Positions 18,269 to 39,124 are shown, numbered from the stretch's first letter. The stretch is 64,000 bases of DNA from Chloroflexota bacterium (GCA_003551705.1 PUNJ01000117.1:8041-72040), one strand, 5' to 3'. The notes: generated by a model from the sequence alone, not told the origin. Made by a program: numbers and translations.

Positions 18269-18281
18269 AGAAACGCCCCTG

Positions 18282-18731: not shown

Positions 18732-18754
18732 CTAAGCACCCTCATCTGGAAAAT

Positions 18755-20416: not shown

Positions 20417-20435
20417 CAGACCTCCAGTCCTGCTG

Positions 20436-21125: not shown

Positions 21126-21162
21126 CGATAAACTTCACCCCGCTTCAGGTTCTAGCCAGAGA

Positions 21163-22362: not shown

Positions 22363-22371
22363 CTGACAACC

Positions 22372-23394
22372 TCACATAGCACCGGCGACGACTTCGGCCA
22401 GGTCTAACACCTCAATCTTTTCCGATCCCAGTTCTTTAAGTCCAGCCTTCAGTTGAAGGATGCAGCCAGGACAGTGGGTGACGATTGTGTCCGCCCCTGT
22501 ATCCAGGAGTTCCTTCGTGCGATTCACGGCAAGAATGTGGCTGAGTTCAGGGAAAACAGCCTCGAACCCTCCACCTCCGCCGCAGCAAGTTGACCATTCC
22601 TTCTCAGTCCCTTCACTACTTACGAGTTCAACACCCTCGATCGCACTCAACACCTGACGAGGCTCTTCTATTACCCCCATAAACCTGGAAAGCTGGCAGG
22701 GGTCATGGTACACAACCTTGACCTGGCGTGAGAACTGGAGCTTTCTCGACCCGAGGTTCTCGGCGACTATTTGAATGAAGTGTTTCACTTCCAGATCGGA
22801 ACCACCGTCCTGCGATGCCACGAAATTGCTGAGAGTGTAGGTACAAGAAGGCACGAGCCCTATTATCCGCTTCACACCTCTGGATTTCAGCACCTTGCGC
22901 ACATCCTCGGTGTTCTTGACAAAGTCTCTTTCCAAACCGATGTAGTGCAGCAACCCACCGCAGCAGGGCTCATCTTCACCCAGATAGCCGAACTCAATGC
23001 CAAGCTTGTTCAACACCGTAACCGCATCCTTCAATGGCTTCGTATCGGCCTCATTCCCCCTCACCGTTACCTTTCGATATACGCCACCAAGGTCGATGCC
23101 AAGTTTCTTCTGTAATCCGGCCATTCCCATGGGTAACTCCGCACCTATTTTGCTCTTGTCCATGCCCCGCATCAGGGACATCAGCGAAACGAGATCGCTG
23201 GAGTACTGGTATCCGCACCCAGCAAAGAAAATGGTATCAGTCTCCTTGGAGAACTTGATATCTTTGGCCCACTTCGAGCGGGATCTCTTTGCATCGCCTA
23301 GAATATTGTGCTTGGAAATTATATTATCAGCCAGGTATGCCAACCCTGGAGGGATCAGGCCCTTCGATTTACTACTCATGTGAATAACCCCCAA
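22372..23394 (-). CDS. CCG-domain Fe-S oxidoreductase (HdrB/HdrD/GlcF/LutA/SdhE-like)
   Basis: 340 aa; two CCG motifs (EDEPCCGGLLHY and WSTCCGGGGGFEAV). Confidence 0.65.
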   Translation of the reverse strand: MGVIHMSSKSKGLIPPGLAYLADNIISKHNILGDAKRSRSKWAKDIKFSKETDTIFFAGCGYQYSSDLVSLMSLMRGMDKSKIGAELPMGMAGLQKKLGIDLGGVYRKVTVRGNEADTKPLKDAVTVLNKLGIEFGYLGEDEPCCGGLLHYIGLERDFVKNTEDVRKVLKSRGVKRIIGLVPSCTYTLSNFVASQDGGSDLEVKHFIQIVAENLGSRKLQFSRQVKVVYHDPCQLSRFMGVIEEPRQVLSAIEGVELVSSEGTEKEWSTCCGGGGGFEAVFPELSHILAVNRTKELLDTGADTIVTHCPGCILQLKAGLKELGSEKIEVLDLAEVVAGAM

Positions 23395-23410
23395 TATGAA
23401 TTCGGTCTAC

Positions 23411-24295
23411 TCAGGCGCGTACCGGTAGACGGTCCTTCAGTAGCTGCGATATCTCGCTGGGCCTCTCAGCCACCGGTACGCCGGCGGCAAGGTAGGCATC
23501 CACCTTTGACCGGGCAGTGCCGACATTGCCCATGACGATGGCGCCCGCATGTCCCATTCGCTTTTCAGGAGGAGCGGCCCTTCCCGCAATGTACGCCACC
23601 ACCGGCTTCGGATACCGCGTGTCAGCGATATACTGGGCAGCCATCTCCTCTGCTTTGCCCCCCACCTCACCAATCAATACAACGCCTTTCGTCTCAGCAT
23701 CATTCCTGAACATCTCAAGCAGCTTTACAAAGTCCAACCAAACTATCGCATCACCCCCGATGCCAACGCAAATACTTTGACCCAGTCCGGAACTCGTTAT
23801 GTGCCAGGCGATCTCGTAGGTCAACGTACCGCTTCTGGAGGCTATGGCTACGTTCCCAGCCTGGAAGATGTGACCGGGCATGATGCCAACCTTGACTCTG
23901 TCTACAGGGTTTATGACTCCAGGACAATTGGGTCCGACTATCACTGCGCCGGTCCTCTCCGCTTTGGCAATGAACTCAATGGAGTCTTTCTGCGGTACCA
24001 TCTCGGTAATAATCACCACCGTCTTGATACCTGCATCCAAAGCTTCATGCACTGCGTCAGGAGCGAAGCGCGCAGGTACAAAGATAATGGATGTGTTGGC
24101 CCCACGTTCCGCTACAGCCTGTGGTACCGTCCCATATACAGGCACGCCCTCGACTTCTTGACCTCCTTTGCCTGGAGTGACCCCGGCCACTACATTGGTC
24201 CCGTATCGCAACATGGACTGAGCGTGAAACCTGCCTTCATTACCAGTTATACCCTGCACTACCACCCGGGAACCAGCATCGATTATGCTATTCAA
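23411..24295 (-). CDS. sucD: succinyl-CoA synthetase alpha subunit
   Basis: 294 aa; CoA-binding and catalytic-His region (GHAGAIV) typical of SucD. Confidence 0.9.
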   Translation of the reverse strand: MNSIIDAGSRVVVQGITGNEGRFHAQSMLRYGTNVVAGVTPGKGGQEVEGVPVYGTVPQAVAERGANTSIIFVPARFAPDAVHEALDAGIKTVVIITEMVPQKDSIEFIAKAERTGAVIVGPNCPGVINPVDRVKVGIMPGHIFQAGNVAIASRSGTLTYEIAWHITSSGLGQSICVGIGGDAIVWLDFVKLLEMFRNDAETKGVVLIGEVGGKAEEMAAQYIADTRYPKPVVAYIAGRAAPPEKRMGHAGAIVMGNVGTARSKVDAYLAAGVPVAERPSEISQLLKDRLPVRA

Positions 24296-25437
24296 GACTT
24301 CACCTCACCACTTATCTTCAGTAACTGCTCTGTAGCCGTCTCCATGTCGGGGTATACCCCAATCCCGGCCTCGCTCAATAACCTGGCACCTTCCTCTTCA
24401 TTCGTACCCATCATTCGCACTGCAACCGGCTTCTTCTCCCATGAGGCTTCCAGACCTTGAATGATTCCGTCCGCAACGATATCACATCGCGTGATCCCGC
24501 CCAGAATATTCACCAGGACTCCCTTCACCTCAGGCTTTGACATGACAAGGAGCAAGCCGTTCTTGATGACGTCCACCTTAGCCCCGCCTCCAATATCCAG
24601 AAAATTCGCAGCCCGCCCCCCATAGAGATTCACAAGGTCCATGGTAGCCATTACCAGTCCAGCGCCGTTGCCTACAATACCGATGTTTCCATCCAGTTCT
24701 ACATAAGCCAGACCCTGCCGCCTCGCCACGGCTTCTCTGGGAGTATCTTCAGTCCGCACCATGTCCCGTTGTTCGAATTCAGGGTGGCGAAAAATCGCGT
24801 TCTCATCAATGATTATCCTGGCATCGGCAGCTACGAATGCACCGGTAGACGTCTTTGCCAGGGGATTGAGCTCGACCAATTCAGCATCAAAGTCCATGGC
24901 CACCGTATACAGAGTGGCGGCAACCTTGGCAAAGCCTTCAGTATCACCCTCCGACAGCCCGAACTCCTTAACCATGTTTCTTGCCGCAGCAACATCAAAG
25001 CCCGTTGTGGGTTCCACCCAGTGGCGCAATATCTTATCCGGTGTGGCGCTGGCCACCTCTTCGATGTCCACACCGCCGCTCGTAGACAGCAAAACGACGA
25101 ACTTTCGCTCTTGCCGGTCGACGGTGACCGACGCATAGAGCTGGTCTACCAGGTCAAGCTTCTCTTCTATGAGTACAATCTCTACGGGGATATCCTTGAT
25201 CCTGCTGCCAACAAGTTTCGCCGCAGCATCTCCAGCAGCCTGTGGACTATCGGCAAAAACTATACCGCCTGCCTTGCCTCTGCCCGAGACTTGCACTTGG
25301 GCTTTTATGACTACAGGCCCACCAAAGCCGGCGGCTATGGTCTCCGCTTCGGCAGGATCCATGGTCACCCGCCCGGCCGGTATACCCAGCCCGTACCTTC
25401 CCAGTATTTCTTTGGCTTCATATTCAAAAAGCTTCAA
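24292..25437 (-). CDS. sucC: succinyl-CoA synthetase beta subunit (ATP-grasp)
   Basis: 381 aa; MKLFEYEAKEIL start, ATP-grasp and ligase-CoA domains; 4-nt overlap with sucD. Confidence 0.9.
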   Translation of the reverse strand: MKLFEYEAKEILGRYGLGIPAGRVTMDPAEAETIAAGFGGPVVIKAQVQVSGRGKAGGIVFADSPQAAGDAAAKLVGSRIKDIPVEIVLIEEKLDLVDQLYASVTVDRQERKFVVLLSTSGGVDIEEVASATPDKILRHWVEPTTGFDVAAARNMVKEFGLSEGDTEGFAKVAATLYTVAMDFDAELVELNPLAKTSTGAFVAADARIIIDENAIFRHPEFEQRDMVRTEDTPREAVARRQGLAYVELDGNIGIVGNGAGLVMATMDLVNLYGGRAANFLDIGGGAKVDVIKNGLLLVMSKPEVKGVLVNILGGITRCDIVADGIIQGLEASWEKKPVAVRMMGTNEEEGARLLSEAGIGVYPDMETATEQLLKISGEVKS

Positions 25438-25455
25438 AAACTTCCTCCCGCGGAG

Positions 25456-25860
25456 CTATTGTGGTTCGGTCAACTCAATGAGCGCTCTCGTTCCCTTGGG
25501 ATGCAGGAAGGCTATCTTGTTGTTCCCCGCACCCATACGCGACTTCTTGTCTATGAGCGGTACTCCTCCCTTGTCCAGGTTTTCCAGCACGCTATCTATA
25601 TTGTCTACCTGTAACGCCAGGTGATGCAGACCCTCGCCTCTGGAAGCTATGAACTTGCCGATGGGTCCATCTGGGTCAGTAGTTTCCAGTAACTCTATTC
25701 TGATATCGCCGACAGGAATGACAGCGACACGGACTTTCTGGTCTGATACTATTTCAATATCCTCCACTTTCAAGCCAAGCCATTCCACGTAGGGTTTCAT
25801 GGCTTCCTCAATGCTGTTTACGGCAATCCCGATATGGTTAACCTTCTTTACCACGGCCAT
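25456..25860 (-). CDS. methylmalonyl-CoA epimerase (VOC/glyoxalase fold)
   Basis: 134 aa; HIGIAV...HHLALQV metal-binding pattern; in the mutase operon. Confidence 0.75.
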
Positions 25861-26251
25861 TCTCCTTCATCTGCTTCTCGATATAGGCTGTAATGTCTGC
25901 CAGGCGTGTGCCCGGTCCAAACACCCTGGATAGGCCGGCCTCTTGGAGGACTGGGATATCCTTCTCGGGGATGATGCCTCCGCCGACTACAAGGATGTGT
26001 CCAGCGCCCTTGCTGCGCAGTAGTTCCACAACCCTGGGGAAAAGGGTCATGTGAGCCCCCGACAGGCAACTGAGCCCGACAACATCGACGTCTTCCTGTA
26101 CCGCTGCATCGCATATCTGTTCGGGAGTCAGCCGAAGGCCAAGATAGACCACTTCCATACCCGCATCGCGTAGGCCCTGCGCAATGACCTTCGCGCCTCT
26201 GTCATGTCCGTCCAAGCCTGGTTTGGCCACTAGTACTCGAATCTTGTCCAT
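25838..26251 (-). CDS. methylmalonyl-CoA mutase, B12-binding small subunit
   Basis: 137 aa; DGHDRGAKV (DxHxxG cobalamin His-ligand motif), Rossmann-like. Confidence 0.85.
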
Positions 26252-26266
26252 GACTTTGATCCCTTC

Positions 26267-27871
26267 CTATAAAATGTTCGGTTCCCGGTATTCTCCGAAT
26301 ACACTCCTGAGTACATCGCTTATTTCGCCCACAGTTGCATACGCCTTCGCTGCCTCAATGAGGGCCGGCATCAGGTTTTGATCACTTTGAGACGTCTCGC
26401 GCACACCTTCCAGTGCTCTGCCGACCTTCTCCTTGTCTCTGCCCTTTCTCAGCTTCTCAAGGCGCTCCGCTTGTTTCTGCTCGATTTCCCGTCCAATCTC
26501 GAGTATCTTGCGTGGTTCAGCCTCAGCTACCTGGTATTTGTTTACTCCAACAATGACCTGATCACCGGAGTCCACCGCTTTCTGAAAACTGTACGAGGAG
26601 CTGGCGATTTCCCTCTGGATATAGCCCTTTTCAATGGCCTTGAGCGCGCCCCCCAGGCGGTCGACCTCCTCAATGTATTCCAGAATCTTCGTTTCCAGAG
26701 CGTTAGTCAGAGACTCAACAAAGAAAGACCCGCCAAGCGGGTCCACCGTATCCGCTACACCACTCTCCTCAGCAATGATCTGTTGTGTCCTCAAGGCCAC
26801 CTGTACCGCTTCCTCGGTGGGCAAAGCCAGTGCTTCGTCATACGAGTTGGTATGTAGTGACTGGCAGCCACCCAGTACTGCTGCGAGCGACTGTATCGTG
26901 ACCCTGACGATGTTGTTCAGCGGCTGCTGTGCAGTGAGTGTGAAGCCATCTGTCTGTACGTGATAACGGAGGGATTGCGACCTGGTATTGGTGCTCCCGA
27001 AACGTTCCTTCATGATCCTGGCCCAGAGACGGCGCAGAGCCCTGTACTTTGCCACCTCTTCCAGCAGATTGGTATAAGCCGCGAAGAAGAATGAGAACCT
27101 CGATGCAAAGGAATCGACTTCCATGCCCTTGGCAATCATGGCCTCTACATAGGCTATGCCATTAGCCAGCGTGAAAGCGGCTTCCTGGGCGGCAGTGGCA
27201 CCGGCCTCCCTCATATGATAACCACTGATACTTATCGAGTTCCACTTGGGCAATTCGTTGGCACAGAAGGAGCATATATCAGTTACAAGCCTCATGGAAG
27301 GTTCCGGGCCAAAGATGTAGGTATTGCGAGCAATATACTCCTTGAGAATGTCATTTTGAACGGTGCCCTCGAGCTTGTTCCGATCAGCCCCCTGCTTCTC
27401 CGCCGCTACAATGTACATGGCGAGAATGATGGGCGCTGTGGCGTTTATGGTCATGGATGTACTGACATCTGCCAGAGGGATGCCCTCCCACAGCCGCTCC
27501 ATATCCTCAAGTGAGTCTACAATTACGCCGCATCTGCCGACCTCGCCTGCCGCCAGCGGATGGTCCGAGTCATACCCCTCCTGGGTAGGTAGCTGGAAGG
27601 CCACGCTGAACCCAGTCTGCCCCTGCTTGTACAGGTACTTGAATCTCTCGTTTGTTTCCTCAACCGTGCCGAAGCCGGCATACTGCCGCATGGTCCAGAG
27701 CCTGCCTCGATAACCAGTGGGCATGATATGCCGGGTGAAGGGGTACTCGCCTGGCAATCCCAGGTCCTCATCCCGAACAGCGGCATCGGCTGCAGTGTAG
27801 ACCCTCTTAACGGGCAAACCATCTACGGTCGTTTTGAATTCGGTCTTTCTTTCGCTGCTCTTATCCGCCAT
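26267..27871 (-). CDS. methylmalonyl-CoA mutase, large catalytic (TIM-barrel) subunit; split archaeal-type
   Basis: 534 aa; [48 protein letters not shown]; start ATG at 27869..27871 with GGAAGAGG SD. Confidence 0.9.
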
Positions 27872-28854: not shown

Positions 28855-28981
28855 AATGTCGAGATTGTTGTTTTCTCCCAATCTTGCAAAATATGCTATA
28901 TATTGTATAAAATAACTATTTGTGCCATCAAGACAAAATGGCTTTTTTGGAAGCCACATTCCAATAAAGGAGGGAAGGTGA

Positions 28982-29350
28982 TTGGATGCTTTAGGTAGAC
29001 ATCTACTCTTGGAACTCAAGGAATGCAACCCCGCAGTCCTAGATGACCTGGCTTTTCTGGAGGAGACCATGTTAACAGCAGCCCAGAAAGCAGGTGCCAC
29101 CGTACTGGAACAGTACTTCCATCAGTTCTCACCTCAAGGAGTCAGCGGCGCCGTGATAATAGCCGAATCCCATCTTTCCCTGCATACCTGGCCGGAGTTC
29201 GGCTACGCCGCAGTCGACATCTTTACATGCGGAGACTCGGTCGATACCGAGGCCGCTGCCGACCTTCTCATCGAGAGACTCCAAAGCAAGGACCCTGTAA
29301 TCATGGAAGTAAAGAGAGGGGTACTGATCAGAACACCAAGCAGAGTGTAG
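28982..29350 (+). CDS. speH: S-adenosylmethionine decarboxylase proenzyme (pyruvoyl-dependent, SpeH type)
   Basis: 122 aa; TTG start with GGAGGG SD; ESHLSLHTWPE self-cleavage motif. Confidence 0.8.
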   Translation: MDALGRHLLLELKECNPAVLDDLAFLEETMLTAAQKAGATVLEQYFHQFSPQGVSGAVIIAESHLSLHTWPEFGYAAVDIFTCGDSVDTEAAADLLIERLQSKDPVIMEVKRGVLIRTPSRV

Positions 29351-29352
29351 GC

Positions 29353-30276
29353 ATGGACGAGTCTGACCCAAACTTATGGTTCCGAGATTCAATTAGCCCA
29401 GACTTTGTGCAACTGCACAGGTTCAGGGAAATAGTGTACTCGGGCACAACCGAATACCAATCATTGGAGATCATCGAGACGGACGCCTTGGGGAGGTGTC
29501 TGGTACTCGACGGAAAGTTGCAGTCCGCCGAGACAGATGAGTTCATTTATCACGAAGCCCTGGTTCATCCAGGTCTGATGGCGCACGCCCATCCCCGGAC
29601 CGTTTTTGTGGCTGGCGGCGGAGAGGGAGCCACCGTCAGAGAGATACTGCGCCACGATTGCGTTGAGCGGGTGATCATGGTGGATATCGACGGGGAGGCC
29701 GTTGACATCTGCCGGCGGTGCCTTACATCCATGAACGCTGAAGCCTTCGATGATCATCGCCTCGAACTTCTACATCAGGATGCCAGGGCGTACCTGGCCA
29801 ATACGGATGTGAAATTCGACGCGTTGATCATGGATATCACGGACCCGCTCGAAGGCGGGCCCGCCTACATGCTATATACTCAAGAATTCTACAAACTTGT
29901 GCATGATCGTCTGGCCCCTGAAGGTATTGTAGCTGTGCAGTCGGGAAGCGCCTCACTGGGGGACCTCAATGTCTTCCTCGCCGTTCACGCAACACTGAAG
30001 ACCGTGTTCCCCCTGGTCTTCCCCTATCATGCCTTCGTACCATCTTTCGGCGGCCTGTGGGGTTTCAACTTGGCCGGTCGAGATTTGGCACCCTTCACCA
30101 TCGCAAATAGCGAGATTGATACGCGAATCGCATCTCGATTGTCCGGTAAGATGCAGTTCTACGACAGCATCACCCATCGCAGCCTATTCAGCCTCCCCCT
30201 ATATTTGCGGCGCGCCCTCGAGGAACAGAGACAAATCATTACAGACGGCAACCCCGTTTTTTTCCACCAGCGCTGA
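29353..30276 (+). CDS. speE: spermidine synthase (aminopropyltransferase)
   Basis: ORF 29227..30276; likely start ATG 29353 (MDESDPNLWF), 2 nt after speH stop; VFVAGGGEGATVREILRH and VIMVDIDGEAVD motifs. Confidence 0.85.
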   Translation: MDESDPNLWFRDSISPDFVQLHRFREIVYSGTTEYQSLEIIETDALGRCLVLDGKLQSAETDEFIYHEALVHPGLMAHAHPRTVFVAGGGEGATVREILRHDCVERVIMVDIDGEAVDICRRCLTSMNAEAFDDHRLELLHQDARAYLANTDVKFDALIMDITDPLEGGPAYMLYTQEFYKLVHDRLAPEGIVAVQSGSASLGDLNVFLAVHATLKTVFPLVFPYHAFVPSFGGLWGFNLAGRDLAPFTIANSEIDTRIASRLSGKMQFYDSITHRSLFSLPLYLRRALEEQRQIITDGNPVFFHQR

Positions 30277-30297: not shown

Positions 30298-30346
30298 TTG
30301 ACTTGCACCCTGCGACATCTATATAATGTTGATAAAGTTAATCAAC
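30298..30346 (+). promoter_or_regulatory. sigma70-like promoter (TTGACT-N18-TATAAT) with overlapping inverted repeat GTTGAT-N7-ATCAAC: candidate autoregulatory Rrf2 operator
   Basis: -35 at 30298..30303, -10 at 30322..30327, inverted repeat at 30328..30346, ATG of the Rrf2 gene at 30352 with almost no leader. Confidence 0.5.
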
Positions 30347-30351
30347 AAACT

Positions 30352-30795
30352 ATGAAACTTTCTACTCGAAGTCGATACGGACTGACCGCTCTCTTGGACA
30401 TAGCCTCGCAGCCCTCAGACAAGCCGGTCCTGCTCAAGGACATAGCCAAGAGACAGCAGATTCCCGCCCAGTACCTGCATCAACTGGTTACGCCTTTAAT
30501 AAAGGCGGGAATCCTGTTCAGCGTGCGTGGGGCTCATGGGGGCGTCAGCCTGGCCAAACCTTCGAACGAGATAGTCCTCGAGACCGTCATCCGAATTCTC
30601 GAAGGATCAATTGCGCCCGTCAAGTGCGTTGACGACCCTAAATCGTGCACCCGTTCCGATTTCTGTGTGACTCGCGAGGTCTGGACCGAGGTGAATCAGG
30701 CGATGACGGGTGTGCTCGAGTCCATAACCTTGCAGGACCTTGTGATACGTCAACGAGAGAAGGAACAACTGAAGACCACCATGTACTACATCTAG
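30352..30795 (+). CDS. Rrf2-family transcriptional regulator (IscR/CymR-like, three-Cys Fe-S ligand set)
   Basis: Start MKLSTRSRYGLTALLDIA (ORF 30298 begins on the -35 hexamer). Winged-helix N-terminus, then C-x6-C-x5-C (CVDDPKSCTRSDFC). Confidence 0.8.
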   Translation: MKLSTRSRYGLTALLDIASQPSDKPVLLKDIAKRQQIPAQYLHQLVTPLIKAGILFSVRGAHGGVSLAKPSNEIVLETVIRILEGSIAPVKCVDDPKSCTRSDFCVTREVWTEVNQAMTGVLESITLQDLVIRQREKEQLKTTMYYI

Positions 30796-30823
30796 CCAAG
30801 GGAAGGACCGTACAAGCAGACCA

Positions 30824-31759
30824 GTGGTGAAAGAAAGACCGCTCATTGCAGAGAATATAACCGACCTGATCGGTCACACCCCGATTGTACGATTGGCCCG
30901 TATCGGTGCGGGACTCGAAGCACAGATCTTGGCCAAGTTGGAATCATTCAATCCGCTGGCCAGTTTGAAGGACAGGATCGGCCTGGAAATGATCGAGGCT
31001 GCGGAGCAGGAAGGACGGATCACGCCTGCTACTGTGATTGTGGAAGCCACCAGCGGAAACACCGGCATCTCACTGGCGTTTGTCTGCGCCGTAAAGGGCT
31101 ACAAGCTGATCATAACCATGCCCGACTCCATGTCGGACGAGAGAAAGAGACTGCTGGCCGTCTTCGGAACGCAACTGGTAATGACGCCGGCCAAAGATGG
31201 TATGCTTGGGGCATTGAAGAAGGCATCGGAAATCGCAACGCAGAACTCCAACCACCTGCTGCTGAGCCAGTTCACGAACCCTGCCAACACGCAGGCGCAC
31301 CGCAATACCACCGCCGAGGAGATATGGCATGACACCGGCGGGCAGCTGGATGTCCTAGTTGCAGGCGTAGGTACTGGTGGCACCTTAACCGGAGTGGGAG
31401 AGGTAATCAAGCAACGAAAACCCTCAATACATTTAGTGGCTGTTGAACCGCAGGCGTCCCCCGTGCTGTCGGGAGGAAAGCCGGGTCCCCACGGCATCCA
31501 GGGACTGGGCGCCGGGTTTATACCTGATATTCTCAATCTGCGCGTGGTCGACGAGATTATGCCCGTAACCAAGGAAGAGGCTGTGGAGACATGCAGCAGA
31601 CTGGCCCGGGAAGAGGGCATCCTGGCCGGCATATCTTCCGGGGCTGCTACCTGGGCAGCCATGGAGATCGCGGCCAGACCAGAGATGCGTGGCAAGATAG
31701 TTCTGGTAATACTCCCCGACTCTGGGGAGCGATATTTGAGCAACGCCTTGCCAGCGTGA
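30824..31759 (+). CDS. cysK: cysteine synthase (O-acetylserine sulfhydrylase)
   Basis: 311 aa; PLP-lysine motif NPLASLKDRIG, GTGGT loop. Confidence 0.9.
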   Translation: MVKERPLIAENITDLIGHTPIVRLARIGAGLEAQILAKLESFNPLASLKDRIGLEMIEAAEQEGRITPATVIVEATSGNTGISLAFVCAVKGYKLIITMPDSMSDERKRLLAVFGTQLVMTPAKDGMLGALKKASEIATQNSNHLLLSQFTNPANTQAHRNTTAEEIWHDTGGQLDVLVAGVGTGGTLTGVGEVIKQRKPSIHLVAVEPQASPVLSGGKPGPHGIQGLGAGFIPDILNLRVVDEIMPVTKEEAVETCSRLAREEGILAGISSGAATWAAMEIAARPEMRGKIVLVILPDSGERYLSNALPA

Positions 31760-31778
31760 ATAATGAAGGAGGTAAAGA

Positions 31779-32567
31779 ATGGACGAGGTCACCATATCCA
31801 GAGCGATTATCGAGAGTTTCTCCAGGGAATTCCTGGATGCTATGGATGTGGATGTGGCCGTTGCCGGCGCCGGCCCATCGGGGATGATGGCCGCGTATGA
31901 TCTGGCCAGTGCCGGTTTCAAGACCGTTGTCTTTGAAAAGAACCTCCGCCTGGGTGGCGGCATGCCGGGAGGCGGCATGATGTTCAACCGCATCGTCCTG
32001 CAGGAAGAGGGCAAACAAATACTGGGCGATCTTAATGTGAGGATGCAGGAGTTCTCCGACGGCTATTACACGGCCGACGCGCTCGAAGCCATGTCAGTGA
32101 TAGCGGTCCGGGCCATCCAGGCAGGAACCAAGGTCTTCAATCTGATCAGCGTTGAGGATGTCATGATCAGAGAAGAGAACCGCATAACAGGACTTGTGCT
32201 TAACTGGACGGCTGTTTCCATGGCCGGACTTCACGTAGATCCCCTGGCGGCCAAGGCAAGGGTGGTCATCGACGCCACCGGGCATGAGTGTGAAGTTGCC
32301 CGGATCGTAGAGCGCAAGATAGGCGCCTATTTGCGGACGCCCACGGGCCGGATAATGGGAGAGAAGTCGATGTGGGCGGAACGGGGAGAAACAGAGATTA
32401 TCGAAAACACAAGGGAGGTCTACCCAGGGCTTGTGGTAGCCGGTATGGCCGCCAATGCCGTCTGCGGTTCACCGCGCATGGGGGCGATTTTCGGCGGCAT
32501 GCTGATATCGGGCAAGCGGGCAGCCCAGGTAGCGATCGAAATGTTGAAAGATGGAGAGCGTGTTTAG
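31779..32567 (+). CDS. thi4: thiazole synthase Thi4 (archaeal/eukaryotic type; no Cys at the suicide-donor position, i.e. sulfide-dependent type)
   Basis: 262 aa; [26 protein letters not shown] fold; [14 protein letters not shown] region lacks the yeast Cys205; good SD GAAGGAGG. Confidence 0.8.
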
Positions 32568-33210
32568 TACAGTCAAAGAGGATATAAGAACCGTTTTCGA
32601 GCGTGACCCTGCTGCTCGGACCCTGATGGAGGTGGTATTCTGCTACCCCGGGCTGCATGCCTTGCTGATGCATAGACAGGCCCATTACCTGTGGCGGCAC
32701 CGCCTTCGGTTCTTAGCTAGACTGCTCTCGCATTTAAACCGGTGCATAACCGGGATAGAGATACATCCGGGAGCCAGAATCGGCCGGAGGCTGTTCATAG
32801 ACCACGGTATGGGCGTGGTAATAGGCGAAACTACGGAGATAGGCGATGACGTACTCATGTATCAGGGAGTAGTCCTCGGCGGGACCAGCCTCGAGAAGAC
32901 AAAGCGTCATCCTACAATAGGCAACAGTGTGGTGATCGGCGCGGCGGCCATTCTGCTGGGCCCCATCGAAGTCGGAGAAGGTGCCAGAGTAGGAGCCAAT
33001 TCAGTCGTCATCAACTCCGTCCCTCCCGGTTCGACAGTGGTCGGCATTCCCGGCCGGGTAGTCGGAGATAAGAGGATATCAACCATAGACCTGGACCATG
33101 GCAAGCTGCCTGACCCGGTCGCTGAAGCCCTGGGGCTTGTTCTTGAGCAACAGCGAAAGCTCGAGGAACGAATAGGGCGTCTCGAAACGCAACTGCAGAA
33201 CAGGACATGA
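32551..33210 (+). CDS. cysE: serine O-acetyltransferase
   Basis: 219 aa; [10 protein letters not shown]-terminal motif, hexapeptide repeats ([28 protein letters not shown]). Confidence 0.85.
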
Positions 33211-33381
33211 TTACCGGAGTGTGGCAGGTGTTAAATAGATGATCGTTACAACTAGCCGGCGGTGCCCGGTTCCTCTTAGAAGGCAACCTGGGAAAGAAGG
33301 CCCATCGCTATGGGCCATGCGCGGCCCGCGCAAGCGGGCGACGGCGGTACCCCGAAATCGGCTCTTCCAGGAGGATATTTG

Positions 33382-34581
33382 ATGTTGAAATCAATTGACG
33401 AAATAAATGAGAAGATCAGCAAAGGCCAGGCCGTCGTTGTAACGGCTGAGGAAATCATAGACATCATCGACGAGAAAGGACTGCCCAGGGCGGCCCGTGA
33501 GGTGGACGTAGTAACCACTGGCACCTTCGGGCCCATGTGCTCGTCCGGCGCCTATCTCAACCTGGGACACCCGGTCCCCCGCATGAAGTTCAGTAGCAGT
33601 ACTTATGTCAACGAAGTCCCAGCCTACTCAGGATTTGCAGCCGTAGACATTTTCATAGGGGCTACAGCCCTTCCCGACAATGATCCCAGAAACAAGACAT
33701 ACCCCGGTGAATTCCCCTATGGGGGCGGTCACGTGATCGAGGAGCTTGTAGCCGGGAAGGACTTGAGGCTGGTGGCCAATACCTACGGGACCGATTGCTA
33801 TCCCAGAAGAAGAATCGACACCCTTATCAACATTGACAGCATCAACGAAGCGACGCTTTTCAACATGCGTAATGCCTACCAGAACTATAATATAGGCGTT
33901 AACCTGTCCGACCGGACCATACACACTTACATGGGTGTACTCAAACCCAGATTGGGAAACGCCACCTACAGCTCAGCAGGACAGTTATCACCCCTGCTGA
34001 ACGATCCTTATTATAAGTCCATAGGCGTAGGCACCAAGATCTTCCTTGGCGGCGGGACTGGATATGTAGCCTGGCATGGTACACAACACAGTCCGTGCGC
34101 TCTAAGAGGCGACAATGGAGTACCCAGGCGGGGATCAGGGACCCTGGCTGTGATTGGAGACCTCAAGCAAATGAGCCCGCACTGGCTCCGGGGTGTTAGC
34201 TTTCTCGGCTACGGGGTAAGTCTGATGGTGGGCATAGGGGTACCCATCCCGGTCACTTCGGAGAAAGTCCTGGCCTGTGCCGGTGTCAGAGATGAAAACA
34301 TATTCGCCCCGGTAGTAGACTATTCCAATGCCTATCCCTATGCCAAAACCGAAATCCTGGCGGAGGCAAGTTATGCCCAGCTCAAGACGGGCATCATTAC
34401 CGTCAACGGCAAGTCCGTTCCTACGGCTTCGCTCTCAAGCTATGCGAAGGCTACCGAGATAGCCGAGATACTCAAGAAATGGATAAAGGACGGGGACTTC
34501 TCTCTGACCAGTCCGGTAGCTCCGTTGCCCGGAGTAGAATCGGGTATTGTGATGAATTCGCTCAAAGAACGGGACCATTAA
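33382..34581 (+). CDS. COG1900/DUF39 sulfide-dependent homocysteine biosynthesis protein (MA1821-like L-aspartate-semialdehyde sulfurtransferase)
   Basis: ORF 33310..34581; start ATG 33382 with GGAGGA SD; about 400 aa with family-typical Cys residues. Confidence 0.75.
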   Translation: MLKSIDEINEKISKGQAVVVTAEEIIDIIDEKGLPRAAREVDVVTTGTFGPMCSSGAYLNLGHPVPRMKFSSSTYVNEVPAYSGFAAVDIFIGATALPDNDPRNKTYPGEFPYGGGHVIEELVAGKDLRLVANTYGTDCYPRRRIDTLINIDSINEATLFNMRNAYQNYNIGVNLSDRTIHTYMGVLKPRLGNATYSSAGQLSPLLNDPYYKSIGVGTKIFLGGGTGYVAWHGTQHSPCALRGDNGVPRRGSGTLAVIGDLKQMSPHWLRGVSFLGYGVSLMVGIGVPIPVTSEKVLACAGVRDENIFAPVVDYSNAYPYAKTEILAEASYAQLKTGIITVNGKSVPTASLSSYAKATEIAEILKKWIKDGDFSLTSPVAPLPGVESGIVMNSLKERDH

Positions 34582-34591
34582 AGGAGGGGAA

Positions 34592-35002
34592 ATGTCTGTA
34601 TCGAGAAGAATTGTCCTGCGTTTTCCCCGTCCTCTTGTCGACCAGCCCATAATTTACAAGCTGGTGAAGGACTACAACCTCATGTTCAATATCCTCAAGG
34701 CCTCAGTTACTCCCAAGGAGGAAGGCCTTCTGGCCTTGGAGCTAAGTGGTACCCAGGCGGACTACAACAGAGGAGTACAGTTTCTGACAGAGGCCGGGGT
34801 AGAAATACAACCTATTGGCAAGGACATATTCAGGGATGAGGACCTGTGCACGCATTGTGGGGCATGCGTTACCATGTGCCCCACTGATGCCTTTCACATC
34901 GAGGGCAGGGCAAGATGGATAAGGTTCGACGCAGAGAAATGCATTGCCTGCGGCATCTGTATCAAGGCATGCCCGGCGCGGGCCATGGAAATGACGATTT
35001 GA
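34592..35002 (+). CDS. NIL-domain / 4Fe-4S ferredoxin protein (MA1822-like partner of COG1900)
   Basis: 136 aa; N-terminal NIL domain then CTHCGACVTMCP and CIACGICIKACP. Confidence 0.7.
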   Translation: MSVSRRIVLRFPRPLVDQPIIYKLVKDYNLMFNILKASVTPKEEGLLALELSGTQADYNRGVQFLTEAGVEIQPIGKDIFRDEDLCTHCGACVTMCPTDAFHIEGRARWIRFDAEKCIACGICIKACPARAMEMTI

Positions 35003-35745
35003 ACAGTGCGATTTCGTACCAACCCCGGCTATACAGGGACTGGACCAGGGACAGGGACCTGGTTTCCTGCTCGGTGGTTGCCGGTCAGACAGACCTCTGC
35101 GTCAGGACCACACGTAACCTACGGTTCAGAGCAGTGAAGCTGCTGTCCAAATACCGGGGCCAGCTGGAGCGATACATCGAGAGGCATCCTGAGTTCGAAG
35201 GCGCCCTTGCCCCCATCTCTGTAGGCGGTGAAGCCCCGGAAATTGCCAAGGCTATGGCCCGAGCAGCAGAGATAGCCGGAGTCGGTCCGATGGCCGCCGT
35301 TGCGGGAGCCATAGCCGGTTTCGTGGGCAGGGGTTTGTCCAGGTACTCTGAGGAGACCATCATAGAGAACGGGGGAGACATCTTTTTGCAATCAAGCCGG
35401 AAGCGACTAGTGGGCGTGTTTGCCGGCGAATCGCCATTGTCGGGCAGCATTGCACTTGAGATACAACCGGAGGAGACTCCTTTGGGCATTTGCACCTCTT
35501 CAGGAACGGTAGGACATTCGTTGAGCTTTGGCAAAGCAGATGCATGCATAGTTTTGTCGCCCATTGTGGAGATCGCCGATGCGGCGGCCACGGCTCTGGG
35601 CAATCGCATCATGTCGGCGGCAGATATCCCGGCTGCAATAGAAGCAGCCAAGCTGATGAATGAAGTCGCCGGTGTGGTTATCATAAAAGGAGACCAGATG
35701 GGAGTTTGGGGCAAAGTTAAGCTTGTCCCTCAACGGGAGCAATGA
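34999..35745 (+). CDS. UPF0280 / COG2122 ApbE-like protein (MA1715-like, third component of the sulfide-dependent homocysteine system)
   Basis: ORF 34915..35745 overlaps the ferredoxin gene; likely TTG start at 34999 (LNSAISYQPRLYRDW...). Start uncertain. Confidence 0.55.
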   Translation: MNSAISYQPRLYRDWTRDRDLVSCSVVAGQTDLCVRTTRNLRFRAVKLLSKYRGQLERYIERHPEFEGALAPISVGGEAPEIAKAMARAAEIAGVGPMAAVAGAIAGFVGRGLSRYSEETIIENGGDIFLQSSRKRLVGVFAGESPLSGSIALEIQPEETPLGICTSSGTVGHSLSFGKADACIVLSPIVEIADAAATALGNRIMSAADIPAAIEAAKLMNEVAGVVIIKGDQMGVWGKVKLVPQREQ

Positions 35746-36920
35746 GAAGAATATACCTGGATCACGCAGCTACTACACCAGTTAGACCCGAGGTGCTGGA
35801 GGCCATGCTTCCGTACTTTGGTGATGAATTTGGCAATCCATCAAGCATACACTTTCTGGGCCAGGAAACGCGTGTCGCAGTTGAGGAAGCCCGGGAACAG
35901 GTGGCCCGCCTGATCGGGGCCGAAGCAAGCGAGATAGTCTTCACCAGCAGCGGCACCGAAGCCGATAACTTCGCACTGAAGGGAATCGCCTTTGCCAATC
36001 GGAATAGAGGAAAGCATATCATAACGTCGTCAATCGAGCATCATGCCGTCCTGAATCCATGCCATTTCCTCGAGGAGCAGGGTTTTGATGTCACCTACCT
36101 CGGCGTAGACCGTGACGGCCTGGTAGATCCTGAAGCCGTTGCGAAAGCTGTCAGGCCAGACACCATCCTGGTGTCGATTATGCATGCCAATAACGAGATC
36201 GGCACGCTGCAGCCCGTGGAGCAAATCAGCACCATAACCAGGGAGCACGGAATCTGCTTCCATACGGATGCCGTACAGACGGTTGGTCGTATACCGGTGG
36301 ATGTCGAGGCGATTGGGGCGGACTTGCTGTCCATGGCAGCACACAAGCTATACGGTCCAAAGGGGGTCGGTGCTCTCTTCATCAGAAGGGGCACTAAGAT
36401 TCACCCCTTCATGCATGGCGGCGGGCAGGAGAAAGGCCGGCGAGCCAGCACGGAGAATGTGCCCGGCATCGTCGGCTTCGGGAAAGCCGCCGCTATGGCC
36501 CGGTCCGAGATGGACACCGAAGTCCCTCGTTTGACTTCCATGCGTGATAGATTGATCAGCGGCCTGTTGGGCAAGATGGACCGCGTATATTTGAACGGGC
36601 ATCCGCAACTCCGGTTGCCCAACAATGTTAATCTGAGCATTGACTTCGTCGAAGGGGAGTCGTTAGCAGTCAGCCTTGATCTCGAGGGCATAGCGGCCTC
36701 GACCGGCTCTGCATGCACGTCGACCGACATGCATGCGTCACATGTCCTGACTGCCATCGGAGTTTCGGGAATCCTCGCCAGAGGATCGCTGCGGTTCTCC
36801 CTCGGGCACGCAAATGATGATGCCGATGTTGATTATGTGCTTGATGCCCTACCCGGAATCGTAAACAGGCTAAGAGCCATATCACCATTGGCCAGGTCCG
36901 ATCGTGCAAGAAATGAATAG
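35742..36920 (+). CDS. cysteine desulfurase (NifS/IscS class)
   Basis: 392 aa; PLP-Lys in SMAAHKLYGPKG, persulfide Cys in STGSACTS. Confidence 0.85.
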   Translation: MRRIYLDHAATTPVRPEVLEAMLPYFGDEFGNPSSIHFLGQETRVAVEEAREQVARLIGAEASEIVFTSSGTEADNFALKGIAFANRNRGKHIITSSIEHHAVLNPCHFLEEQGFDVTYLGVDRDGLVDPEAVAKAVRPDTILVSIMHANNEIGTLQPVEQISTITREHGICFHTDAVQTVGRIPVDVEAIGADLLSMAAHKLYGPKGVGALFIRRGTKIHPFMHGGGQEKGRRASTENVPGIVGFGKAAAMARSEMDTEVPRLTSMRDRLISGLLGKMDRVYLNGHPQLRLPNNVNLSIDFVEGESLAVSLDLEGIAASTGSACTSTDMHASHVLTAIGVSGILARGSLRFSLGHANDDADVDYVLDALPGIVNRLRAISPLARSDRARNE

Positions 36921-36969: not shown

Positions 36970-37410
36970 ATGCCAGAGATTGTGGCGGTCTGCATCAGCA
37001 ATGAAGTAGGCACGAAGAAGAAGCCGGTAGGCCATGCAAACCTTGTCGAGGATCTCGGCCTGGAGGGCGATGCCCATGCGGGCTATCTGCCTAATCGTCA
37101 TGTAAGCTTGCTTGCCTTGGAGAGTATCGAAAAGATGCGAGATCAGGGACTGGATGTAGGCCCTGGAGATTTCGCTGAAAACATCACCACACAAGGTATA
37201 GACCTGCCCTCCCTGCCTCTTGGTACCAGGCTCACGATAGGCCCACAAGCTGTGCTGCAGATCACGCAAATCGGCAAGGAATGCCACACGCGATGTGCCA
37301 TCTATTACCAGGCAGGAGACTGTATCATGCCAAAGGAGGGCGTATTCGCCCGTGTAGTGCGTGGAGGTCCGATCTGTGACGGCGATCCCATAGTGAGGGC
37401 CGAAAGCTAG
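36970..37410 (+). CDS. MOSC-domain protein (MoCo sulfurase C-terminal domain family)
   Basis: 146 aa beta-barrel MOSC pattern with conserved Cys (GKECHTRCAIY). Confidence 0.65.
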   Translation: MPEIVAVCISNEVGTKKKPVGHANLVEDLGLEGDAHAGYLPNRHVSLLALESIEKMRDQGLDVGPGDFAENITTQGIDLPSLPLGTRLTIGPQAVLQITQIGKECHTRCAIYYQAGDCIMPKEGVFARVVRGGPICDGDPIVRAES

Positions 37411-37418
37411 AGAAACCC

Positions 37419-38207
37419 ATGCAAGAGGAAGTCGAAAGAGTAACCGCATTGCGGTACACCGGTACGGATGTGCAGGAGATTGACGAATCGGTCGTGAAGG
37501 AATACCCCTTCACTATCTCGGTCAATAACCAGGAACTCGTGACGTTGCTCTGTTCGCCCACCTATCTCAAGTTTCTGGCTGTCGGGTTTCTGGTTTCGGA
37601 AGGTATCATCAAGAGCAAGGACGATATCAAGAAGGTGGTAGTGGACGAGAGACTGGGAATAGCCTGGGTGCAGACCACTGACCAGGAGGCTGTGCAGCCG
37701 CTGATGTTATCCAAGAGATTGATCACTTCCGGTTGCGGTCGTGGAGCATCCTTCTACAATCCGGATGATGCCCAAGCTTTCACCATTATTGAGTCAAAGC
37801 TGACGGTCAAGCCAGAAGATGTTTTCTCCCTTGTGCAGGAGTTTCAGCATTACTCCGAAATCTACAAGACCACTCACGGCGTTCACAGCGCGGCTTTGTG
37901 CGACAATAAGAAGATATTGCTTTTTCGGGATGACATTGGCAGGCATAACGCCATTGACAAAATAGTTGGAGAATGCCTTCTTAACGACCTGTCGACGCAA
38001 GACCGCATGATTGTTGTCAGCGGACGCATATCCTCTGAGATGGCTGTCAAAGTTGCAAAGAGAAATATACCAGTCCTGGTATCCATTTCGGCGCCGACAG
38101 ACCTCGGTATCCGCCTCGCCAATGAGTTTGGCCTTACCCTGATTGGTTTTGTCAGGCCCAAGAGGATGAACGTGTATGCAGGTAGGGAAAGAATAGCAGG
38201 ACTATGA
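37419..38207 (+). CDS. fdhD: FdhD-type sulfurtransferase (formate dehydrogenase accessory protein family)
   Basis: 262 aa; catalytic loop TSGCGRGAS; no formate dehydrogenase gene in this window. Confidence 0.8.
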   Translation: MQEEVERVTALRYTGTDVQEIDESVVKEYPFTISVNNQELVTLLCSPTYLKFLAVGFLVSEGIIKSKDDIKKVVVDERLGIAWVQTTDQEAVQPLMLSKRLITSGCGRGASFYNPDDAQAFTIIESKLTVKPEDVFSLVQEFQHYSEIYKTTHGVHSAALCDNKKILLFRDDIGRHNAIDKIVGECLLNDLSTQDRMIVVSGRISSEMAVKVAKRNIPVLVSISAPTDLGIRLANEFGLTLIGFVRPKRMNVYAGRERIAGL

Positions 38208-39124
38208 GTACAGAGAAGAACCGAATCTCCAGATTGAAAGACAGAATATCCGAACTTAAGAATAGAAGGGACGCCCTGATCCTGGCCCACAATTACCAGT
38301 TGGGCGAAGTCCAGGACATCGCTGATGTTGTGGGCGACTCATTGGAGTTGAGCCGCATCGCAGCTGCATCCGAGGCTAGCGTTGTCGTCTTTTGCGGCGT
38401 TCACTTCATGGCCGAAACCGCCTATATCCTCAGTCCGGACAAGACGGTGTTACTGCCCAACCTGGGAGCAGGGTGTCCCATGGCTGACATGATCACCGCT
38501 GCCGAAGTCAAGCGGATGAGGCAAGACCACCCCAATGCCATGGTGGTAGCTTATGTCAATACAAGCGCGGAGGTAAAAGCGCACTCCGATGTGTGCTGTA
38601 CATCGGCTAATGCGGCAAGGCTCGTCGCCAATCTTGATGCAGAGGAAATCATCTTTGTACCTGACCAGTATCTTGGAAGTTACGTCATGGCCCAAACCGG
38701 CAAGACGATGATCTTATCGTCCGGTTATTGCCCAACTCATGCCAGAATCTCCGGAGTCCATATTGCCAAGCTGCGCAAGGAGTACCCTGAAGCCGTGGTC
38801 ATCGCCCATCCGGAATGCCGTCCCGATGCAATAGAACTTGCCGACGAGGTGTTAAGCACGGGCGGCATGTGCCAATACGTCAAGACCGCCCCGGCAAGAC
38901 AGATCATCGTGGCTACTGAGATCGGTATCATACACAGGCTGCAGAAAGAGAACCCAAACAAGGTATACCTCCCCGTATCGGAGCAGGCTGTTTGCCCCAA
39001 CATGAAGATGATCACCCTCGACGACATAGTCAGGTCGCTGGAAGACATGGCGCCGGAGGTAACGGTGCCGGAAGACATTCGAGCCAGGGCCAAGCTTGCT
39101 GTTGACAGGATGCTGCTTGGTTGA
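38204..39124 (+). CDS. nadA: quinolinate synthase
   Basis: 306 aa; LAHNYQ, FCGVHFMAET, three conserved Cys for the 4Fe-4S cluster. Confidence 0.9.
   Translation: MSTEKNRISRLKDRISELKNRRDALILAHNYQLGEVQDIADVVGDSLELSRIAAASEASVVVFCGVHFMAETAYILSPDKTVLLPNLGAGCPMADMITAAEVKRMRQDHPNAMVVAYVNTSAEVKAHSDVCCTSANAARLVANLDAEEIIFVPDQYLGSYVMAQTGKTMILSSGYCPTHARISGVHIAKLRKEYPEAVVIAHPECRPDAIELADEVLSTGGMCQYVKTAPARQIIVATEIGIIHRLQKENPNKVYLPVSEQAVCPNMKMITLDDIVRSLEDMAPEVTVPEDIRARAKLAVDRMLLG

Follow-up and report, generated by a model that had tools for sequence, protein, structure and literature searches.

Non-Cys THI4 thiazole synthases are slow, metal- and sulfide-dependent enzymes (PMC10127261, PMC8454699). His occupies the sulfur-donor position in 171 of the 199 known non-Cys THI4s, and their published genomic associations are with TRASH, cobalt/nickel genes and thiamine genes (PMC8454699). 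Genes for Cys-type Thi4 cluster with CysK, CysE, NifS, MOSC/YiiM, FdhD and HcyBio, an arrangement that has been read as a hint of persulfide relay or repair (PMC13325395, 2026). Among the Rrf2 regulators, E. coli IscR carries the ligands C92, C98, C104 and His107, and its Glu43 keeps apo-IscR off type-1 sites (PMC3899308). In C. perfringens, the operon headed by the Rrf2 regulator CPE1786 is induced by cysteine limitation (PMC2940859). Here we analyzed a stretch of 64,000 nucleotides (nt) from a Chloroflexota bacterium (GCA_003551705.1, PUNJ01000117.1:8041-72040), hereafter the window, in which positions are counted from the first letter. Between 30298 and 33210 it carries four co-directional genes, rrf2, cysK, thi4 and cysE, which probably form the head of a sulfur-assimilation operon that is autorepressed by an IscR-like Rrf2 protein and includes a sulfide-type Thi4. 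The promoter, the candidate operator and the genes of this unit are as follows.

30298-30303, + strand: -35 hexamer TTGACT; orthologues have TTGACA at the same relative position upstream of rrf2
30322-30327, + strand: -10 hexamer TATAAT, separated from the -35 hexamer by an 18-nt spacer
30327-30347, no strand assigned: candidate Rrf2 operator TGTTGATAAA-G-TTAATCAACA, a 21-bp palindrome with 9 of 10 arm positions complementary
30352-30795, + strand: rrf2, Rrf2-family, putatively IscR-like regulator of 147 amino acids (PF02082, 133 bits)
30824-31759, + strand: cysK, O-acetylserine sulfhydrylase, GTG start (TIGR01139, 438 bits, cut-off 351; PALP domain)
31779-32567, + strand: thi4, by its residues a non-Cys (His152) ADP-thiazole synthase (PF01946, 267 bits; TIGR00292, 325 bits, cut-off 148)
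32551-33210, + strand: cysE, serine O-acetyltransferase (TIGR01172, 246 bits, cut-off 211)

The initial annotation of this DNA, made from the sequence alone, had placed thi4 between cysK and cysE with a 17-nt overlap into cysE, and the codon positions bear this out: the TAG of thi4 lies at 32565-32567 and the ATG of cysE at 32551. The other intergenic gaps are 28 nt (rrf2/cysK) and 19 nt (cysK/thi4), and thi4 has the Shine-Dalgarno sequence GAAGGAGG at 31764-31771. The start of rrf2 was assigned to the ATG at 30352, which gives MKLSTRSRYG; all orthologues begin with MKLST(K/R)GRYG. A TTG start at 30298 proposed by the open reading frame finder was rejected, as it is the -35 hexamer read in frame.

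The near-consensus promoter described for rrf2 was also found: TTGACT-N18-TATAAT agrees with the consensus at 11 of 12 positions and is the top-scoring site of a 10-kb scan (28.5-38.5 kb). The perfect repeat GTTGAT-N7-ATCAAC is present as described and forms a 19-nt core (30328-30346) that abuts the -10 hexamer and spans the predicted transcription start. The complete 21-bp palindrome begins on the last base of the -10 hexamer and ends 5 nt ahead of the rrf2 ATG. Almost no leader had been noted before this ATG, and the leader measures ~17 nt and has no Shine-Dalgarno sequence.

We scanned for relatives of the Thi4 protein, taking one genome per species, and obtained 80 loci at 66-75% identity, mostly from Dehalococcoidia/Chloroflexota metagenome-assembled genomes, with three from Thermodesulfovibrionales or Nitrospirae. 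Fourteen rrf2 homologues in these loci are preceded by TTGACA-17/18-(-10) and then by GTTGAyTAnnnTArTCAAC, amid otherwise diverged spacers; the operator sits either directly after the -10 hexamer or ~7 nt downstream of it. A symmetrised 19-nt position weight matrix (PWM) built from these 14 rrf2-upstream sites recovered a single site in the window, at 27.2 bits. The runner-up, at 11.5 bits, is at shuffle level, as the top PWM score of 50 window shuffles averaged 11.7 bits with a maximum of 17.2. Across the ~950 kb of the 80 loci, all PWM sites of at least 18 bits lie 5-36 nt upstream of rrf2 genes, and one such rrf2-upstream site belongs to L027, which is outside the PWM training set. An independent metagenome scan with the Rrf2 protein added rrf2-upstream sites scoring 19.6-29.0 bits in L082, L083, L089, L098, L104, L110 and L129, together with a 100%-identical sediment metagenome contig, L081. 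Taken together, ~24 Dehalococcoidia rrf2 orthologues are preceded by the operator GTTGAyTA-N3-TArTCAAC and its promoter, a combination that is virtually absent elsewhere. Because promoter and operator recur in this way, autoregulation of rrf2 in a one-operator operon is well supported.

These comparisons agree with the autorepressor layout that the initial annotation had read from the repeat over the transcription-start region, since the palindrome is a phylogenetically conserved candidate operator before rrf2 orthologues. A search for further GTTGAT-N7-ATCAAC sites had also been suggested, their absence upstream of sulfur genes, together with a lack of binding by the regulator, counting against the operator. 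None was found in the window or in the ~950 kb of related loci; the PWM likewise gave no second site in the window and none outside rrf2 upstream regions in those loci. To demand other occurrences is too strict, and the operator is still supported despite the single site because it is conserved across rrf2 orthologues.

A paralogous Rrf2 group, ~48-60% identical and also often beside cysK, provides a comparison. In the members inspected (L084-L103), a different palindrome, TACTAnTAT...ATAnTAGTA, occupies the same place upstream, and the recognition helix reads SERYLE in the paralogous group versus S(L/V/A)(S/Q/P)YLE in the window-type group. Such a joint change of helix and palindrome would follow from each regulator binding the site upstream of its own gene. 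Neither a second Rrf2 gene nor a paralogue-type operator was found in the window. Genes of the paralogous group also lie at L033:2513-2953 and L110:4200-4640 (- strand in both). The Rrf2 of L033b has a window-type site but a different helix, and in both L033 and L110 two rrf2-cysK pairs are arranged divergently.

To place the regulator within its family, we compared it with family models and solved structures. Its Rrf2 domain scores 131.5 bits with TIGR00738 (cut-off 73). The CymR model NF047409 also gives 131.5 bits, below its cut-off of 195, and the IscR models TIGR02010 (112.4 bits, cut-off 207.6) and NF008110 (95.8 bits, cut-off 275) are likewise below theirs. The closest solved relative is 4CIC (117 bits, 45% identity), identified as Thermincola potens IscR (Santos et al. 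2014, cited in PMC4618611 and PMC9338935). In the alignment, three Cys of the window protein fall on the three cluster-ligand Cys replaced by Ser in the crystallised 4CIC variant, and these Cys of the window protein are invariant in 27 of 27 homologues. The same residues align with C92, C98 and C104 in what we take to be the E. coli IscR sequence. The window operator matches the E. coli IscR type-1 consensus ATASYYGACTRWWWYAGTCRRSTAT (PMC3899308) at 17 of 25 positions and the orthologous operators match it at 17-21 of 25, with L082 agreeing at all 17 core positions; random 25-mers of the window match at 8.8 ± 2.3 of 25. Validated P. aeruginosa sites match this consensus at 68% and 76% (PMC3899308). 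A nifS gene lies in the same gene string, ~5 kb downstream of rrf2. We favor an IscR-like over a CymR-like regulator because of the three invariant Cys at ligand positions and the type-1-like operator. By these features the protein would be IscR-like in mechanism. We do not call it an IscR orthologue, since its scores, Arg at the His107 position and His at the Glu43 position leave membership in IscR not established. The label CymR/IscR-like given by the initial annotation is therefore retained for its IscR-like half and dropped for its CymR-like half, and neither equivalog cut-off is passed.

The thiazole synthase had been assigned to the Thi4 family rather than to the ThiG type, and PF01946, TIGR00292 and the PDB matches (7RK0, 273 bits; 4Y4N, 247 bits) agree with this. 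The reported lack of the donor Cys in the active-site segment was also confirmed, as His152 (AGLHVDP) aligns with the donor Cys of Arabidopsis THI1 (TQSCMDP), the counterpart of yeast Cys205. The alignment that had been suggested as a check, here with archaeal and T. ammonificans THI4 (TaTHI4) structures and Arabidopsis THI1, gave a non-Cys position in the archaeal and T. ammonificans structures: the archaeal structures 4Y4N, 4Y4M and 6HK1 have His at the donor position, as does the window protein, and TaTHI4, which is 49% identical to it, has Met158. Asp154 and His169 (ATGHE) take the places of Asp160 and His175, the metal ligands of TaTHI4, and Arg233 (SPRMG) that of Arg239, which binds the glycine-imine carboxylate; the roles of Met158, Asp160, His175 and Arg239 are those described for TaTHI4 (PMC8454699). 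TaTHI4 is the closest solved relative, and its complementing activity was assayed in an E. coli thiG-deletion strain (PMC8454699). His stands at the donor position in 80 of the 80 closest genomic relatives. Judged by these residues, the window Thi4 is a non-Cys, sulfide-type enzyme, from which we infer sulfide use. The relatives and the identical sediment contig L081 point to anaerobic sediment Dehalococcoidia as the host, which is consistent with direct sulfide use. The exact window Thi4 protein has no record in the assembly index, and no Cys-type Thi4 was found elsewhere in the window. An insertion or intein in the Thi4 of L010, L016 and L065, to which long match spans had pointed, was considered and rejected, since these spans are not real and the tblastn segments are of normal length.

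We then examined the neighborhoods of thi4 in the 80 loci. The gene adjoins thiC in 24 of them, and a thiamine pyrophosphate (TPP) riboswitch was detected upstream of thiC, at 68-74 bits, in 3 of the 3 thiC-thi4 loci scanned.

L045:6520-6620: TPP riboswitch before thiC-thi4
L052:6525-6626: TPP riboswitch before thiC-thi4
L055:6481-6608: TPP riboswitch before thiC-thi4

In another 26 of the 80 loci thi4 is directly upstream of HcyBio-NIL/ferredoxin-COG2122; cysK and cysE flank or adjoin it in 10-11, and mnmA adjoins it in 6. The thiC/TPP-riboswitch class among the orthologues indicates a genuine role of this orthologous group in thiamine synthesis. The remaining neighbor classes show what appears to be repeated recruitment of thi4 into sulfide-assimilation operons, and in the lineage of the window thi4 seems to have moved from a TPP-riboswitch/thiC context to co-regulation with other sulfide consumers. 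Neither a thiamine gene nor a TPP riboswitch was found in the 64-kb window. The gene order speH-speE-rrf2-cysK-thi4-cysE-hcy-nil-cog2122-nifS is shared with L003, L048, L051, L059 and L073. The coupling of thiazole and cysteine synthesis, which the initial annotation had called unusual, is thus real and recurrent; it is not unprecedented, having been published in 2026 for Cys-type Thi4 (PMC13325395).

The place of thi4 between cysK and cysE is not always filled in the same way. A Cys-type paralogue (AITCVDP, 43% identical), on the - strand in each case, stands in the rrf2-cysK-X-cysE arrangement of four loci.

L017:1780-2532: Cys-type Thi4
L021:1222-1992: Cys-type Thi4
L024:1641-2393: Cys-type Thi4
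L061:1373-2125: Cys-type Thi4

The same loci have a second, His-type thi4 a few kb from this cluster, located upstream of HcyBio, and in L012 and L069 the cysK-cysE slot is empty. The slot therefore occurs in three states: empty, with a Cys-type Thi4 and with a His-type Thi4.

Among relatives, the thi4-HcyBio operons (L002, L006, L007, L012, L015, L017, L018, L022, L024, L028 and others) have a conserved promoter of their own, TAGACA-17-TATACT, ~100 nt upstream of thi4 (for example at L017:7900-8000), and a conserved leader of ~55 nt. No Rrf2 site was found in these operons. In L001, L019, L021 and L061, an extra AT-rich insert of ~100 nt (..GGAATTAGGA..TTTAGGATT) lies between leader and thi4.

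Downstream of cysE, the window contains the following genes and one conserved element.

33270-33381, + strand: conserved leader element before hcyA, ~100 nt, candidate cis-regulatory RNA of uncertain status
33382-34581, + strand: HcyBio/COG1900, L-aspartate-semialdehyde sulfurtransferase large subunit (PF01837, 490 bits)
34592-35002, + strand: NIL + 2x[4Fe-4S] ferredoxin, sulfurtransferase small subunit (PF09383 and 2x Fer4)
34999-35745, + strand: COG2122/UPF0280 (PRK04334; NF003323, 298 bits, cut-off 271), start either TTG 34999 or ATG 34969
35742-36920, + strand: nifS, cysteine desulfurase (TIGR03402, 567 bits, cut-off 531), 4-nt overlap with the preceding gene
36970-37410, + strand: MOSC-domain protein
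37419-38207, + strand: FdhD sulfurtransferase
38204-39124, + strand: NadA

After nifS, on the same strand, come the MOSC, fdhD and nadA genes, which overlap or are separated by short gaps. NadA is a [4Fe-4S] enzyme. Nicotinamide adenine dinucleotide (NAD) is the substrate consumed by Thi4, and nadA stands in the same gene string; NadE is encoded ~6 kb beyond nadA, at 45280-46005. COG2122 is presumably the MA1715 sulfur-trafficking family. A role for MA1715 is described in PMC12068725, where the COG is not named, and COG1900 with the NIL-ferredoxin protein constitutes sulfide-dependent homocysteine synthesis (PMC4045070, PMC12068725). Sulfide-dependent homocysteine genes had been reported next door to the unit, and this was confirmed by PF01837 for HcyBio and by PF09383 and Fer4 for the NIL-ferredoxin gene that follows it.

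The gap between cysE and hcyA is 24-61 nt in several synteny loci. These short gaps and the conserved full order indicate that the unit runs well beyond cysE, and transcription probably reads past cysE into the homocysteine genes, nifS, MOSC, fdhD and nadA. The gene set rrf2-cysK-thi4-cysE given in the initial annotation therefore stands, and its end at cysE does not, as the unit most likely extends further. At the other end, the rrf2 promoter is directly preceded on the same strand by two genes at 28982-30276, speH for S-adenosylmethionine (SAM) decarboxylase and speE for spermidine synthase. This synteny with rrf2 is also found in L003, L020, L041, L048, L051, L059, L073 and L083. No terminator-like site was found between speH/speE and the rrf2 promoter, and read-through into the rrf2 unit from this SAM-consuming operon is possible.

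The leader element before hcyA consists of a CU-rich stretch, a conserved core, the hairpin GCCCGC-GCAA-GCGGGC and then a Shine-Dalgarno sequence. Its core reads uAUGGnnAAUGcGuGGCCC-(GNRA-like loop)-GGGC, and base pairing is predicted between the CU-rich UUCCUCUU (33270-33277) and the Shine-Dalgarno sequence of hcyA, AGGAGGA (33368-33374). The element also occurs at L003:9505-9622, L082:~1000-1100, L083:4670-4797, L089:7995-8147 and L110:8007-8134; covariation among the six sequences is weak. It has no Rfam match and may be an unrecognised cis-regulatory leader. The cysE-hcyA spacer could not be aligned convincingly with the promoter before thi4-hcyA in relatives, and homology between the two was rejected. 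No riboswitch for the cluster was found with Rfam, either in the window at gathering thresholds or in 27.5-40 kb at E <= 1; the sole match, a sub-threshold Histone3 stem-loop at 28935-28980, was taken as chance.

Elsewhere in the window, a minus-strand cluster (17102-27871) encodes the large and B12-binding subunits of methylmalonyl-CoA mutase, a glyoxalase-fold (epimerase-like) protein, succinyl-CoA ligase alpha/beta, CCG- and LUD-domain iron-sulfur (Fe-S) proteins, a flavoprotein and an acyl-CoA dehydrogenase. It looks like a propionate/succinate pathway unrelated to the rrf2 operon.

Starting from the observed gene identities, active-site residues, synteny, promoter and operator conservation and Cys triad, we propose a mechanism in which the binding of the repressor, its Fe-S cofactor, the direction of its effect, the extent of the transcript and the use of sulfide by Thi4 are predicted. 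One strong sigma-70-type promoter (30298-30327) would drive rrf2-cysK-thi4-cysE, most likely reading on downstream. An IscR-like Rrf2 dimer would bind the single 19-21-bp palindrome over the transcription start and repress its own operon, with an Fe-S cluster most likely bound by the three invariant Cys. In this way repression would track Fe-S, iron and sulfur status, so that full clusters keep the operon off and shortage or damage turns it on. CysE and CysK would make cysteine from sulfide, Thi4 (His152) would catalytically convert NAD, glycine and free sulfide into ADP-thiazole at a bound metal, and the downstream genes would make homocysteine from sulfide and mobilise cysteine sulfur (NifS). 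When sulfide is scarce, more enzyme would be needed, and such de-repression logic fits the slow, metal- and sulfide-dependent Thi4 enzymes.

Several points weigh against this proposal, the case for which is comparative throughout. In the window Rrf2, Arg stands at the position of His107, the fourth ligand of IscR (motif CVTR[E/D]), and a His (YLHQL) at that of Glu43, where the other 26 aligned homologues keep Glu; codon 43 lies at 30478-30480, and the independent contig L081 has the same His-bearing sequence. Given this His for Glu43, the cluster dependence of binding may differ from that of IscR. The protein fails the NCBIfam cut-offs of both IscR and CymR, scoring slightly better on CymR, and no Fe-S scaffold gene (IscU, NifU, Suf) was found among the typed genes of the cluster. 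For Thi4, TIGR00292 also passes the Cys-type paralogue (250 bits), so that automatic annotation cannot separate the two types, the name 'sulfide-dependent' is not diagnostic and only residue-level evidence bears on sulfide. The cysE-hcyA gap of the window is 171 nt and carries the conserved structured element, and the genes after cysE may have separate control. Finally, the palindrome alone is no rarer than chance: the window contains 19 perfect 6-N7-6 inverted repeats versus 15.6 expected, 3 10-N1-10 repeats with at most 1 mismatch versus 1.8 expected, and 27 matches to the 19-nt pattern GTTGAT-N7-ATCAAC with at most 3 mismatches versus 24 expected. Its significance comes from its position and conservation, not from its rarity. 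On a related point, neither half-site of the window operator has the C of GACTA; a clear tie between this loss and His43 was rejected, as L129 lacks both C and keeps Glu.

The chance frequency of such repeats and the lack of a second site in the window are what would be expected if the palindrome were no operator at all, being a chance repeat, an mRNA hairpin or an initiation-region preference, with Rrf2 acting elsewhere. We regard this as highly implausible, because sequence and position are kept upstream of ~24 orthologues while the spacer diverged, because ~950 kb contains no site of at least 18 bits except upstream of rrf2, and because another palindrome stands in this position in the paralogue group. 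If an operator is accepted, the nature of its repressor may still be read in other ways. In a CymR-type mechanism, as documented for B. subtilis CymR (cited in PMC9338935), the Rrf2 protein would bind only together with the adjacent CysK and would report O-acetylserine/cysteine, with no cluster sensing. Such a mechanism suits the position of rrf2 immediately upstream of cysK, a pairing that recurs in both Rrf2 paralogue groups, and the place of rrf2 before cysK-thi4-cysE behind the only promoter-like site, which is a matter of adjacency and not of expression. It is also in line with the best equivalog score, that of NF047409 (131.5 versus 112.4 bits for IscR), and with the strong PDB matches of the B. 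subtilis and S. aureus CymR structures. However, this score is far below the cut-off of 195 bits, CymR is without cluster ligands (PMC9338935; no Cys in 2Y75) whereas 27 of 27 homologues here keep three Cys, and the operator resembles an IscR type-1 site. We consider CymR-type control rather unlikely, and the two mechanisms are not mutually exclusive.

It is quite unlikely that the three-Cys cluster, as [4Fe-4S] in the manner of NsrR or as [2Fe-2S] in the manner of RsrR, acts as a sensor of redox state, O2 or NO, so that oxidants switch the oxygen-sensitive sulfide-assimilation enzymes. The missing His107 and the acidic residue after the third Cys (CVTR[D/E]) do leave room for non-IscR ligation, which is known in NsrR and RsrR (PMC5411485, PMC9338935), and both non-Cys Thi4 and the ferredoxin-dependent sulfurtransferase are O2-sensitive (PMC8454699, PMC10127261). 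Nevertheless, the NsrR model gives only 55 bits on the window regulator, an NsrR structure is the weakest PDB match, the operator is closest to IscR type-1 of the sites tested, and a content of cysteine synthesis and NifS fits Fe-S/sulfur homeostasis. A different question is whether Thi4 serves thiamine synthesis at all, or not only that, and instead takes part in sulfur trafficking or makes another sulfur product. The sharing of the cysK-X-cysE slot by His-type and Cys-type enzymes in different genomes would suit such a role, as would the placement of about half of the His-type orthologues beside sulfur, not thiamine, genes, the repetition of this placement in cysteine, homocysteine and tRNA-thiolation clusters, and the lack of a thiamine gene or TPP riboswitch in the window. 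We nonetheless consider it very unlikely, since orthologues at the same 66-75% identity stand in TPP-riboswitch-thiC-thi4 operons, the active-site ligands are intact, and TaTHI4 was assayed for complementation of the thiG deletion (PMC8454699).

A broader and more speculative extension of the preferred reading, an IscR-like autorepressed operon with a sulfide-type Thi4, is that the cysK-X-cysE slot is dedicated to a thiazole synthase of either type, both being catalytic in sulfide-rich anaerobes, and that an Fe-S-sensing Rrf2 repressor sets the thiazole supply in place of the TPP riboswitch. This is on balance unlikely. If true, the dehydroalanine of spent Cys-type Thi4 could be re-sulfurated by sulfide or by CysK, CysE and NifS, and a common substrate and common regulation, not a specific persulfide rescue pathway, would account for the published clustering of 'suicide' Thi4 with sulfur genes. 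Apart from this extension, the presence of a His-type enzyme in the same neighborhood and the swapping of the two types in one slot weaken the argument from clustering to suicide rescue.

These results provide a testable operator (GTTGAyTA-N3-TArTCAAC) and a candidate regulator for sulfur assimilation in Dehalococcoidia, which are abundant in sediments and mostly uncultured and have almost no characterised transcriptional regulation. Our literature search yielded no account of this Dehalococcoidia regulator or operator. In some genomes this orthologous Thi4 is under a TPP riboswitch together with thiC; in others it would answer to an IscR-like sulfur/Fe-S circuit, which would be a clean natural example of a vitamin gene that changed from end-product to substrate-supply control.

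Compared with described regulators, the locus resembles that of IscR in E. coli and P. aeruginosa (PMC3899308) in that an Rrf2 repressor gene stands first in its own operon. As with E. coli IscR, a palindrome of the 25-bp class (core YYGACTR-WWW-YAGTCRR) overlaps the RNA-polymerase recognition region, three Cys occupy the positions of C92, C98 and C104, and a cysteine desulfurase is encoded in the same gene string. It differs in having one site versus two or three in E. coli and P. aeruginosa, and, relative to E. coli IscR, in the replacement of His107 by Arg and of Glu43 by His, in a score below the IscR cut-off, and in its genes, which are cysK, thi4 and cysE (with homocysteine genes and nifS) versus iscSUA-hscBA-fdx, with no scaffold gene. 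The T. potens IscR (4CIC), from a Gram-positive-type anaerobe, shares the three ligand positions and a C-terminal MYYI tail; unlike that protein, which PMC9338935 presents as a sensor of Fe-S levels and oxidative stress, the window regulator has sulfide-assimilation enzymes as its adjacent targets. The CymR proteins of B. subtilis and S. aureus (2Y75, 3T8R; 77-90 bits) are likewise Rrf2 regulators linked to cysteine metabolism and tied to CysK, but CymR, which is without Fe-S ligands, depends on CysK as co-repressor (PMC9338935), whereas three Cys are present here. CPE1786-iscS-iscU-trmU of C. perfringens (PMC2940859) is similar in that an Rrf2 protein between CymR and IscR heads a desulfurase operon; there, however, cysK and cysE are separate and T-box controlled, with no Thi4 and no defined operator (PMC2940859).

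With respect to the thiazole synthase, the window Thi4 shares the family fold and the Asp/His ligands with the non-Cys THI4s of M. jannaschii, M. igneus and T. ammonificans (4Y4M, 4Y4N, 7RK0). Unlike the published contexts of non-Cys THI4s, its gene lies inside a cysK-cysE operon with a candidate Rrf2 operator and no TPP riboswitch. The neighborhood is like the clusters of PMC13325395, as CysK, CysE, HcyBio, NifS, MOSC and FdhD are encoded within 8 kb; it is unlike them in that the occupant is His-type and that no DUF6775, ThiS or ThiF was found among the genes typed. All parts of the system come from known families, the known chemistry is unchanged and bacterial non-Cys THI4s have already been characterised. 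What the locus adds to these systems is the candidate operator motif, a putative IscR-like regulator for cysK-thi4-cysE and the apparent shift of thi4 from riboswitch to repressor control.

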